Shown here: positions 15,841-23,400 of the stretch, in pieces
Layout of the letters: every line of letters begins with the position of its first letter
How positions within the stretch are numbered: the first letter of the stretch is position 1
Assembly: GCA_016202815.1 (NCBI GenBank)
Contig: JACQNZ010000002.1
Coordinates: 48,228 to 80,227, forward strand
Reading direction: 5' to 3'
Length of the DNA: 32,000 nt
Source of the DNA: Candidatus Aenigmatarchaeota archaeon
GTDB taxonomy: Archaea > Aenigmatarchaeota > Aenigmatarchaeia > JACPZZ01
Translations under genes and position numbers: made by a program
Notes under the pieces: generated by a model
What the model was told of the DNA's origin: nothing
The model's input: only the letters and a program-made list of their open reading frames with translations
Database searches by the model: none

Positions 15841-15861
15841 GAATCAGGCATAACCTGATTC
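15841..15861. terminator. Perfect 8-bp hairpin between convergent 3' ends (DedA-like gene and tRNA)
   Basis: GAATCAGG-CATAA-CCTGATTC. Any function as a terminator or processing signal is inferred only. Confidence 0.3.
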
Positions 15862-15872
15862 AGTCTGTCGAA

Positions 15873-16099
15873 TGCTCCCGCCGCGATTTGAACGCGGGTT
15901 TAGAGGTATCTGCCAAGCATTTTCTTTTCTGTCTGCTTTCGTTTGGTTGAGCTTTGCCATTTAATTTATCTTGGTTGGTTTTTGCTCTTCAATTTCTTTT
16001 GGTTTGGCTTTGCTCTTTAATTTCTTTTGGTTGAGCTTTTCTTTTGAAAGAAAAGGTCATCCGCAACCTCTTGTCTTGTCCAGGCTGGACCACGGGAGC
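15873..16099 (-). tRNA. tRNA-Arg (anticodon GCG) with an intron of about 153 nt at the canonical 37/38 position
   Basis: The minus-strand exons give a 74-nt cloverleaf.
- Acceptor stem: GCUCCCG pairs perfectly with CGGGAGC, followed by discriminator A.
- D arm: GUCC-AGCCUGGACA-AGAC.
- Anticodon arm: AGAGG-UUGCGGA-CCUCU.
- Variable loop: AAAC.
- T arm: CCGCG-UUCAAAU-CGCGG.
No CCA is encoded. A TATA-like TTTATTTTTAAA lies about 25-30 nt upstream. Confidence 0.75.
15908..16060 (-). other. tRNA intron, A-rich on the RNA strand, containing about three degenerate ~29-nt tandem repeats
   Basis: The plus-strand repeats TTTGCTCTTCAATTTCTTTTGGTTTGGC (15981-16008) and TTTGCTCTTTAATTTCTTTTGGTTGAGC (16010-16037) are about 25/28 identical. 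TTGGTTGAGCTTT recurs at 15944 and 16028. At the RNA level a hairpin CUUUUC-UUUCAAAA-GAAAAG sits at the intron 5' end. Confidence 0.6.
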
Positions 16100-22099: not shown

Positions 22100-23400
22100 A
22101 TAAAGTAGGATATGTGACATACTCCCACCTAAAAGGTGTAGGCTTCTTGCTTCCCTGACGGAACTGTCGCCCCATCTCCACAAGCGTTACTTCCCGCCTG
22201 CCCGGCGGTAGCTCTGATGAGTATATTCTTTGCAGCGTTCAAATCTCTGTCTATCACAAGACCGCAGAAAGGACAGTCATGTATCCTGTCTGAAAGTTCC
22301 TTCTTAACAATCTCGTGACAGTTGCTGCATCCTTGTGTAGTGTTTTTCGGGTCTACGAATACGATCTTGCAACCAGCTTCTTCCGCTTTGTAGCTGATCA
22401 TATTCGCAAACACATTCCATCCGGCATCGTTGATCGACTTGCCTAAGTTTTGTTTTGACATTTCTTTTGAGGCAAGTTTTTCAAGCGCTATGAAGGAATA
22501 ATCATTGACGATTCTTGTTGATGTCTTATGAAGGAAATCTGCTCTTGTGTTTGATACTTTTTCGTGAAGTCTTGCAACCTTGAGCTTTGCCTTCTTCCTG
22601 TTATTGCTTACTTTCTTTTTATTGGATAATTCCCTTTGCAGTTTGGCAAGGTTCTCTTCGTGCCGTTCCAGATGTCTTGGATTTTGTATGACTTCTCCGT
22701 TTGAAATGGTGGCAAAGGTTTTCAAACCCAAATCTATTCCTATTTGTTCTCCGTTATTTATCCTCGGTTCTTTTCTCTCCTGTCCAACACAGAACGTGGC
22801 GAACCATTTGCCTGAAGATTCCCTTTTCAATGTCAGGGTTTTTACTTCGCCTTCTATCTCACGATGTTTCTTGATGTTTATTTCTCCAAAAGGGGTTACT
22901 TTGAGTTTTTTATTGAGTGAAAAACCACTCTGCGGATAATTTAGGCTCTTTATTCTATCAATATTCTTGAAGCGAGGATAACCGCATTCCTTGCCCTGCT
23001 TTCTCATTTTGACCATGCGCCACAAAGCCCTTTGAAGCCTGTGCGATAATGTCTGCGCTACTTGAGAATACAAACCGCTGTTCTTTACCATTATTTGCAT
23101 TTCACTTTTTGTAAGGAATTTCCCTGTTTCATCATATTTTTTCTTGTTAGATTCAAGAAGCGTGTTCCACAGGTTCTTCTCTATCCAGAGATGTTCTTTC
23201 ATCTGAGTTTCCTGTTTCTTTGACGGGTAGATTCTGAATTTGTAGGTTCTCATGCTGCTTCGCCCTCACAACATCCTGTACATGTTCCAAATGCTTTTTA
23301 TGTTTTCGGTTGTGGTGTGCCGATATGGTTCGCTTCCATCCCGCCCCCGAAGAGCGTGGAATTTCCCGCTCACTCTGTTAAAATATTTAAGCGCGGACAG
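22100..23400 (-). mobile_element. TnpB-only IS200/IS605-type element (no tnpA); the boundaries are approximate
   Basis: The tnpB gene is flanked by a hairpin right after its stop (22105-22128) and by imperfect palindromes upstream (about 23325-23385). It appears more AT-rich than its neighbours. The exact ends cannot be set from one copy. Confidence 0.4.
22129..23253 (-). CDS. tnpB: TnpB (IS200/IS605-family OrfB, RuvC-like RNA-guided nuclease)
   Basis: MRTYKFRIYPSKKQ (OrfB N-terminus), RuvC-I IGIDLG, RuvC-II FIALEKL, Zn finger CSNC..CPFC, and RuvC-III DRDLNAAKNI. 374 aa and apparently intact. Confidence 0.85.
   Translation of the reverse strand: MRTYKFRIYPSKKQETQMKEHLWIEKNLWNTLLESNKKKYDETGKFLTKSEMQIMVKNSGLYSQVAQTLSHRLQRALWRMVKMRKQGKECGYPRFKNIDRIKSLNYPQSGFSLNKKLKVTPFGEINIKKHREIEGEVKTLTLKRESSGKWFATFCVGQERKEPRINNGEQIGIDLGLKTFATISNGEVIQNPRHLERHEENLAKLQRELSNKKKVSNNRKKAKLKVARLHEKVSNTRADFLHKTSTRIVNDYSFIALEKLASKEMSKQNLGKSINDAGWNVFANMISYKAEEAGCKIVFVDPKNTTQGCSNCHEIVKKELSDRIHDCPFCGLVIDRDLNAAKNILIRATAGQAGSNACGDGATVPSGKQEAYTF

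Follow-up and report, generated by a model that had tools for sequence, protein, structure and literature searches.

The tRNA-Trp intron of Haloferax volcanii is 105 nt long and carries a C/D box guide RNA. Protein-spliced tRNA introns of archaea and eukaryotes are described as shorter than 100 nt (PMC4033280), and their origin is stated to be unknown both for Thermoproteales (PMC4090602) and for Asgard archaea (bioRxiv 10.64898/2026.10.13.758758). For the tRNA introns of Thermoproteales, copying or conversion between sites was proposed in work of 2010, as related in two later papers (PMC4090602, PMC4033280). In ARMAN/Micrarchaeota and other DPANN archaea, many tRNA genes carry introns, some of them multiple or non-canonical, and are therefore missed by standard finders (PMC3239211, PMC5829648). 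Here we report an intron of 153 nt in the tRNA-Arg(GCG) gene of a groundwater DPANN archaeon (Aenigmatarchaeota), located in a 32,000-nt stretch of its genome (the window; G000:C1:48228-80227). The element is of an ordinary kind, a bulge-helix-bulge (BHB) intron at the canonical position, in an unusual state: it is most simply a young gain, 153 nt long and built from an amplified cassette. It has probably grown by amplification of a genomic cassette inside a single functional gene.

The intron is like canonical archaeal 37/38 introns in its position, in its 4-bp helix with two 3-nt bulges, in the presence of EndA and RtcB, and in having orthologues with the full hBHBh' motif (central helix and bulges flanked by helices h and h'), but differs from them in its length, in the tandem array of a genomic repeat inside it and in its degraded outer helix. 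It shares with the H. volcanii intron a long insertion at or near the anticodon loop, but has no C/D boxes and no guide complementarity and is not conserved in congeners. As in Thermoproteales, near-identical introns are found in tRNAs of different identity (96% over 73 nt) and the gain is apparently recent; here, however, the host belongs to DPANN, only the 5' cassette is common to the introns whereas the 3' end is specific to each tRNA, and the cassette is also intergenic and amplifies in tandem. The papers on disrupted tRNA genes of ARMAN and other DPANN archaea treat endonuclease type (epsilon2, L2/L3 loops) and relaxed motifs, not repeat-built introns, and in contrast to the epsilon2 endonuclease of ARMAN the genome studied here encodes a single alpha-type EndA of 215 aa. 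Unlike in split tRNAs of the Nanoarchaeum type, the two halves here are neighbours on one strand and follow the normal order, and the orthologues are contiguous or have short cis introns. The cassette itself can be likened, by description only, to bacterial REP/BIME/REPIN and BoxC/PIT elements, which are short, multi-copy, non-coding hairpins prone to clustering; its mirror purine tract is compatible with an intrastrand triplex, as in the triplex repeats of the BoxC/PIT group. Like REP/REPIN it is multi-copy (about 25 loci), non-coding, and comes and goes between relatives, but it is archaeal, is found within spliced introns as well and is strongly biased in orientation, and the hairpins at the Y1 transposase gene of this genome are of another kind. 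No description of such cassette-built introns in DPANN archaea was found in the literature.

The studied genome (G000) is a metagenome-assembled genome (MAG) of 947 kb in nine contigs, with a G + C content of 49% and a completeness of 91%; its RtcB is 87-93% identical to that of 'Candidatus Aenigmatarchaeota archaeon NC_groundwater' MAGs, which assigns it to a groundwater lineage of DPANN. The tRNA-Arg(GCG) gene was searched with BLAST against this genome and 40 relatives, among which G002-G006 are congeners and G031 belongs to another family; the nearest relative in metagenomes is represented by the contigs L037/L039. ARAGORN with intron search called a tRNA-Arg(gcg) at G000:C1 c[64100,64326], which corresponds to 15873-16099 on the minus strand of the window, with a mature length of 74 nt, exons of 39 and 35 nt, and an intron after gene position 39 (nt 37/38). 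The locus reads GCTCCCGTGGTCCAGCCTGGACAAGACAAGAGGTTGCGG, 153 nt, then ACCTCTAAACCCGCGTTCAAATCGCGGCGGGAGCA, and the spliced sequence by itself is again called tRNA-Arg(gcg). Over all 74 nt it shares 88-89% identity with the uninterrupted genes of G006 and G002, which score 54.7 and 54.8 bits against the Rfam tRNA family (54.7-59.7 bits among the intron-less orthologues; threshold 29), and its exon 1 is 95-98% identical to that of the congeners. ARAGORN without intron search found no tRNA, and Rfam at the gathering threshold no match, anywhere in the window; these blanks are not evidence against the gene, because long introns exceed what those tools accommodate.

In an alignment of 14 tRNA-Arg(GCG) sequences from the class, with any introns removed, cloverleaf pairing is kept in 98% of cells and compensatory changes occur at 12 of the 21 pairs. 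This covariation was reached by none of 500 shuffles and approached by no slid register. The acceptor, anticodon and T stems of the gene are perfect; the sole deviation from the cloverleaf is a C13.A22 mismatch in the D stem, common to the six genus members aligned, at which other families have U13.G22. The codons CGC and CGT together number 4,408, or 33% of the Arg codons in 813 long open reading frames (ORFs), and no ACG tRNA gene was found in the 91%-complete genome. A first-pass annotation of the window, made from the letters alone, had proposed that two exon halves form a clean 74-nt cloverleaf around an intron of about 153 nt. The ARAGORN call at exactly its coordinates, the call of the spliced sequence, the identity to orthologues and the intron length of 153 nt all agree with it, and a second intact tRNA-Arg(GCG) gene, which together with a lack of expression or splicing here would by its account have spoken against it, was not found in the genome at this completeness. 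The locus is probably the single functional tRNA-Arg(GCG) gene of the genome and is the sole GCG decoder found in it.

The splice motif was also as that annotation had read it, with UUGC pairing to GCAG between the bulges GG^A and AU^A (^, splice site). The central helix of 4 bp (one G.U pair) between two 3-nt bulges has canonical geometry, and helix h, the anticodon stem, is perfect. The outer helix h', which the annotation had called weak, consists of U.G, G.U, A-U, CxC and C-G, i.e. two Watson-Crick pairs, two wobble pairs and one mismatch, and does not form in the model. The fold constrained to the BHB lies 4.4 kcal/mol above the minimum free energy (MFE), and the MFE structure itself retains U33-A, G34-C and C35-G. 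G003, G004 and G005 have a canonical hBHBh' with an h' of 5 bp and constrained folds 1.7-2.9 kcal/mol above the MFE. In these relatives h' covaries (CAAGC/GCUUG in G003, UAACC/GGUUG in G004, UAGCC/GGUUA in G005, the latter two with one wobble each), which supports the BHB motif independently. GCAG is kept in four of the five intron-bearing orthologues (G000, G003, G004 and L037/L039), and G005 has ACAG. As modelled, the BHB of G000 is a relaxed motif, with an outer helix degraded in this genome only.

One EndA is encoded in the genome (G000:C2:68405-69052, minus strand; L015 1474-2121). The protein of 215 aa has both Pfam domains (PF01974, 94.4 bits, and the N-terminal domain), aligns end to end with the homotetrameric enzyme of M. 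jannaschii (1a79, E 1.5e-34), and carries a 6-residue insert with a lysine (RGPKEA) immediately before the catalytic His, a region of EndA that is occupied by specificity-widening loops in Crenarchaeota and ARMAN (PMC5829648). RtcB is also encoded (549.5 bits). The pre-tRNA would thus be spliced by this single EndA and its halves joined by RtcB, with the predicted junctions given in Table 1.

The first 45 nt of the intron form a cassette that consists of a UGA/UCA outer stem, a C.C mismatch, a U-rich/A-rich hairpin, a 7-nt linker (7-8 nt in the cassette plan) and a mirror purine tract. Tandem Repeats Finder reported a single array (77% matches, score 129), whose 28-nt unit is the tail of the cassette: linker, mirror tract and TTAAAG. 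The first-pass annotation had noted about three copies of a repeat of about 29 nt and a 5' hairpin; tandem repetition and hairpin stand, the latter as 12 bp with one C.C mismatch, and the repeat values are revised to 3.7 copies with a period of 28. No comparable array is present in the orthologous introns, among which G003 has only two copies of an 18-19-nt unit. Beyond the hairpin the intron folds little better than shuffled sequences (z = -1.94; 12 of 200 shuffles equal). In line with the annotation, no pair of C (RUGAUGA) and D (CUGA) boxes was seen in the intron when read by eye, and no snoRNA family appeared at Rfam E<=10. The Rfam matches that did appear at this level (XIST_intron, U7, Trp_leader, ROSE_3) stay well under the threshold, at chance level, and result from the A/U hairpin. 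A self-splicing group I or II intron was rejected, with no Rfam match and 153 nt of weakly structured A-rich RNA that in our judgement does not resemble a ribozyme core. Rejected, too, was the cassette linker (CTTAACC and similar) as a TATA box; its sequence changes in step with the 5' flank, and numerous copies have a GC-rich one (CCTTGAGG, GCTAGCG).

The flanking gene order (161-aa gene, Zn-ribbon gene, aEF-1beta) is kept on both sides in G002-G006 and partly in G031, so that the tRNA-Arg(GCG) loci are orthologous. A comparison of orthologues, one of the checks proposed in the first-pass annotation, revealed syntenic genes without an intron in G002 and G006 and introns of 74-100 nt in four close relatives: at 37/38 the intron measures 153 nt in G000, 100 nt in G003, 82 nt in G004, 76 nt in L037/L039 and 74 nt in G005. 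The gene is uninterrupted in eight genomes from six other families. G054 has an intron in the D arm only and none at 37/38, and G031 has two introns, one of them at 37/38. The G031 gene (L007, G031:C41) is mislabelled by ARAGORN as 'Gln(ttg) i154'. A metagenome scan for strain variants of the repeat number yielded one further relative, that with the 76-nt intron; ten other matches in the scan were chance hits in unrelated coding DNA, and the 161-aa neighbour protein, used as a query for related loci, retrieved no relatives. Judged from this distribution, the most parsimonious history would be a gain within the genus and an independent gain in the G031 lineage, and the length of 153 nt is most simply explained as a species-specific expansion.

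The cassette is not confined to this gene. A search of the genome for further copies, which the first-pass annotation had suggested for the repeat unit, placed the hairpin type of the cassette at about 25 loci, and it begins roughly half of the 21 introns called by ARAGORN. BLAST located copies in the introns of tRNA-Pro(UGG), tRNA-Pro(CGG), tRNA-Ala(CGC) and a CAT tRNA, and in spacers just upstream of protein genes (C8:1914-1985, C1:115085, C2:97365, C6:52913); other families of the class have it as well (e.g. G018, 95% over 40 nt). The Arg intron is nearest to the intergenic copy of its own genome at C8:1914-1985 (88% over 69 nt, of which 42 nt at 97.6%), compared with 74-77% over 39-52 nt for the orthologous introns of G003, G004 and G005. 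The G003 Arg(GCG) intron, in turn, matches intron 2 of the G000 tRNA-Ala(CGC) with 96% identity over 73 nt, and the G001 Ala(CGC) intron has the cassette variant that occurs in the G000 Arg(GCG) intron (88% over 43 nt). Being closer to other loci than to its orthologues, the Arg intron indicates that cassette type is not tied to locus, and cassettes would have been copied or converted between sites. What the introns have in common is limited to the 5' part; the last 25 nt or so, which must complement each anticodon loop, are gene-specific. The distal h' strand GCUUG is identical in G000 and G003, where it pairs perfectly with CAAGC; this fits a replacement of the 5' cassette in the G000 lineage, with drift as the alternative. 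Two intergenic copies, at G000 C8 and G005 C6, have a duplicated tail as well, which makes tandem growth a property of the cassette rather than of the Arg intron.

Two multi-intron tRNA genes in G000 were mislabelled or missed: the tRNA-Ala(CGC) at G000:C7:44902-45106 (plus strand), with a 49-nt D-loop intron and an 83-nt intron at 37/38, appears in ARAGORN as 'Leu(taa) i111', and the CAT tRNA at G000:C5 (about 1340-1520) has two introns and no ARAGORN call. At least 12 tRNA genes on C2, C7, C8 and C9 have a hairpin of a second family directly before position +1 (e.g. C2:102005-102050, C7:44860-44901). This family has the form ...CTGAAACATATGC-ATACCAAAA-GCATATGTTTC-TAGTTAAAAC, followed at +1 by GGGCC..., its arms vary compensatorily, and it occurs also within the introns of tRNA-Trp, tRNA-Ser(GCT) and tRNA-Pro(GGG) and in 3' trailers.

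Pairing within the cassettes was scored copy by copy with a script, a MAFFT alignment having put the arms out of register. The outer stems vary across copies (UGA, CAAG, UAAC, UAGC, UGGC, UGAC, UAA, AUA and others), and every orthologous intron, like other copies, maintains the hairpin plan through compensatory changes. In a set of 14 copies, drawn from introns and spacers of seven genomes, all 14 retain hairpin and mirror tract despite sequence change, and a mirror tract with at most one mismatch lies within 30 nt downstream of 17 of the 54 informative pyrimidine/purine hairpins genome-wide (about 8 expected from permuted arms), although both counts overstate independence, as the cassette copies are related by descent. 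Upstream of the 54 hairpins there are no mirror tracts. In every one of the 14 copies the downstream tract matches the mirror image at least as well as a direct repeat, and the mirror match is exact in those with the most distinctive arms: AAAGGAAAAA with AAAAAGGAAA in G004, AAAAAGAAAG with GAAAGAAAAA in G005, and AAAAAGAGAA with AAGAGAAAAA on C3 of G000. Such a tract may point to an intrastrand triplex, a structure that is biophysically more plausible for DNA than for RNA.

Copies of the CC type are in sense orientation in five of five introns, and most spacer copies are co-oriented with the neighbouring genes, as judged from crude ORF calls. The spacer cassettes often lie between a stop codon and the next start. 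Upstream of the 813 long ORFs of G000, T is enriched at -29..-27 and A at -26..-24 and -35..-33 relative to the ATG, a pattern as expected were many mRNAs leaderless; a weak purine-rich signal was also seen at -11..-6. With this T-rich/A-rich signal at -29..-24, spacer cassettes overlap terminator and promoter territory. The tRNA-Arg gene is itself flanked by cassettes, one past its 5' splice site and one ahead of its 5' end. The latter is a degenerate copy (CTTTATTT..AAAGAAAG-CTTAATC-AAAGAAA) within the 69 nt that separate the tRNA from the divergently oriented Zn-ribbon gene, and the genome-wide signal at -29..-24 suggests a promoter role for it. On the other side of the gene, 12 nt past its 3' end, an 8-bp hairpin (GAATCAGG-TTATG-CCTGATTC; window 15841-15861, minus strand) sits in the 42-nt gap ahead of the next gene.

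A link of the cassette to IS200/IS605 elements or to a RAYT-type Y1 transposase was considered but could not be made: Y1 and TnpB genes are present, but the hairpin at the 3' end of the Y1 gene (CCCCGCAC-TTTA-GTGCGGGG) is GC-rich and of another type than the cassette. The only Y1 (IS200/IS605-type) transposase gene of G000 (C5:95275-95760; L029 1418-1902) scores 102.8 bits. It appears to be broken near its 5' end by the hairpins GAGAAAAC-TGAT-GTTTTCTC and TAGAAAACC-TTT-GGTTTTCTA, which bring in an in-frame TGA. A TnpB/Cas12f-like zinc ribbon (PF07282, 82.6 bits) is encoded at 22222-22419 of the window (minus strand) in a 378-aa open frame, and a second copy of PF07282 is on contig 2 of G000.

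Table 1. Features of the tRNA-Arg(GCG) locus, with positions in the window (^, splice junction).
Feature	Position	Strand	Basis or remark
tRNA-Arg(GCG) exon 1, nt 1-37: acceptor 5' strand, D arm, anticodon stem 5' strand, U32-G37	16061..16099	-	ARAGORN -i, covariation
tRNA-Arg(GCG) exon 2, nt 38-73, CCA not encoded	15873..15907	-	ARAGORN -i, covariation
Intron, 153 nt, canonical position 37/38	15908..16060	-	ARAGORN -i
Central BHB helix, 5' strand U32 U33 G34 C35, then 5' bulge G36 G37^A (intron nt 1)	16063..16066	-	Read from sequence
Central BHB helix, 3' strand GCAG (intron nt 148-151), then 3' bulge A U^A38	15910..15913	-	Folding
Outer BHB helix h', distal partner GCUUG, weak pairing with intron nt 2-6 UGACC	15914..15918	-	Constrained fold
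Cassette hairpin: outer stem UGA/UCA, C.C mismatch, pyrimidine arm CUUUUCUUU, loop CA, purine arm AAAGAAAAG	16032..16059	-	12 bp, one mismatch
Purine tract CAAAAGAAA, mirrors hairpin purine arm at 8 of 9 positions, 7 nt past the arm	16021..16029	-	
Tandem array, period 28, 3.7 copies of the cassette tail, consensus AAAGCCCAACCAAAAGAAATTAAAGAGC, 57% A	15937..16039	-	Tandem Repeats Finder
Degenerate second cassette copy, directly upstream of tRNA +1, AAACCTTTATTTTTAAAGAAAGCTTAATCAAAGAAA	16100..16135	-	Overlaps likely TATA region
Predicted exon junction after splicing, ...GGUUGCGG^ACCUCU...			
Predicted junction of the circularised 153-nt intron, ...GGCAGAU^AUGACCUUUU...			

Taken as a canonical-position BHB intron that has grown by cassette amplification, the locus can be explained as follows. 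An intron would have been gained inside the genus, its interior supplied by the 45-nt cassette of a lineage-wide repeat family that resides in spacers and tRNA introns. In this species alone the 28-nt tail would then have been amplified to 3.7 copies, probably by slippage between similar purine tracts, taking the intron from about 75-100 nt to 153 nt. Gene conversion or insertion, acting on DNA, would exchange cassette variants among loci, and such exchange may account for the degraded outer helix, leaving splicing to rely on a relaxed motif. EndA, of the alpha4 M. jannaschii-like type, would cut the pre-tRNA at the 37/38 BHB before RtcB joins the halves. The length of the intron would have no function of its own, and given the intron-free congeners, a function of the cassette is not needed to explain the intron. 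Several points weigh against this explanation. The h' of G000 is poor, yet EndA of the alpha4 type is classically strict for the BHB (PMC5829648), and that splicing is efficient is an assumption resting on the gene being single-copy. The preference for gain over loss comes from parsimony across the sampled genomes rather than from a rooted species tree, and the 37/38 intron of G031 has the same kind of cassette, so that an older origin followed by losses may also apply. Moreover, with about 10 of 11 copies co-oriented with local transcription and a conserved structure, the cassette could be functional.

A further-reaching reading, which we put forward only tentatively, is that the cassette is a mobile or recombining DNA module that seeds and remodels BHB introns in Aenigmatarchaeota, folding into a triplex, supplying h' and amplifying in tandem. 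The triplex may be of the purine motif and form within the non-template strand, and the module may land in, or convert, sites where its own outer stem can serve as h', with the 3' end tailored to each anticodon loop. The first-pass annotation had left the repeats either as remnants of a mobile insertion or as part of a stable non-coding RNA. The former is favoured by the present data, since the 5' 45 nt copy a genome-wide cassette and the repeats are its tail, and the latter found no support. If the excised, probably circular intron were a functional RNA (an A-rich protein sponge, a stable circle or a triplex element) with its repeat number under selection, the conservation of hairpin and mirror tract through compensatory changes and the nearly uniform sense orientation of the copies would be accounted for, and persistence in circular form is known for archaeal tRNA introns (PMC3326292). 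Two congeners, however, are intron-free and nine genomes of other families have no 37/38 intron, the interior is only 74-77% identical over 39-52 nt among orthologues, cassette variants are swapped, the tandem array is restricted to G000, and the fold outside the hairpin is near random, with neither C/D boxes nor an Rfam family, all of which makes such a function unlikely.

The remaining explanations dispense with cis splicing, with the activity of the gene or with the reality of the array. In a split tRNA in cis, with the intron as a spacer between two halves transcribed separately, the U-tract of the hairpin would terminate a 5' half and BRE/TATA-like units (B recognition element; AAAGAAATTAAAG) would promote a 3' half, to be joined by trans-splicing. 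The location of spacer cassettes between a stop codon and the following start, and the resemblance of the T-rich/A-rich signal at -29..-24 to ATTAAA of the repeat units, would suit it; but the introns of G004 and G005 have not kept TTAAA, the distance from the last TATA-like unit to exon 2 is about 55 nt instead of about 25 nt, the orthologues have short canonical cis introns with perfect h', and both halves stand side by side in the usual order on the same strand, so that we regard this arrangement as very improbable. Just as little credence is given to a decaying gene, in which a cassette swap broke the outer helix, splicing is poor or absent and CGU and CGC are read by another tRNA: while h' is degraded in G000 alone and EndA resembles the strict alpha4 type, the exons, the central helix and both bulges are intact, one third of the Arg codons need this tRNA in a genome with no other GCG or ACG tRNA found, and the insert of EndA places a lysine beside the catalytic His where specificity-widening loops sit elsewhere (PMC5829648). 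That the array or its junction was mis-assembled is conceivable for any genome recovered from a metagenome bin, as this one was, but is hardly credible for a 158-kb contig whose gene order to either side of the tRNA recurs in five congeners; the repeat copies, with no more than 77% similarity, would not easily be collapsed or expanded by an assembler, and independently assembled relatives share the intron site and the intron ends.

Within one genus, the same syntenic gene thus presents an empty site, short canonical introns and a repeat-expanded intron with a degraded helix, which form a natural series. Default tRNA finders and Rfam miss the gene wholly, which implies that the tRNA complements of DPANN MAGs are under-called. 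The 5' cassette held in common with other tRNAs and with intergenic DNA ties intron gain and growth to one structurally constrained repeat family, a connection that can be tested. If the cassette is indeed a mobile module, it would show in concrete terms how archaeal tRNA introns can be gained, which has long lacked an explanation.

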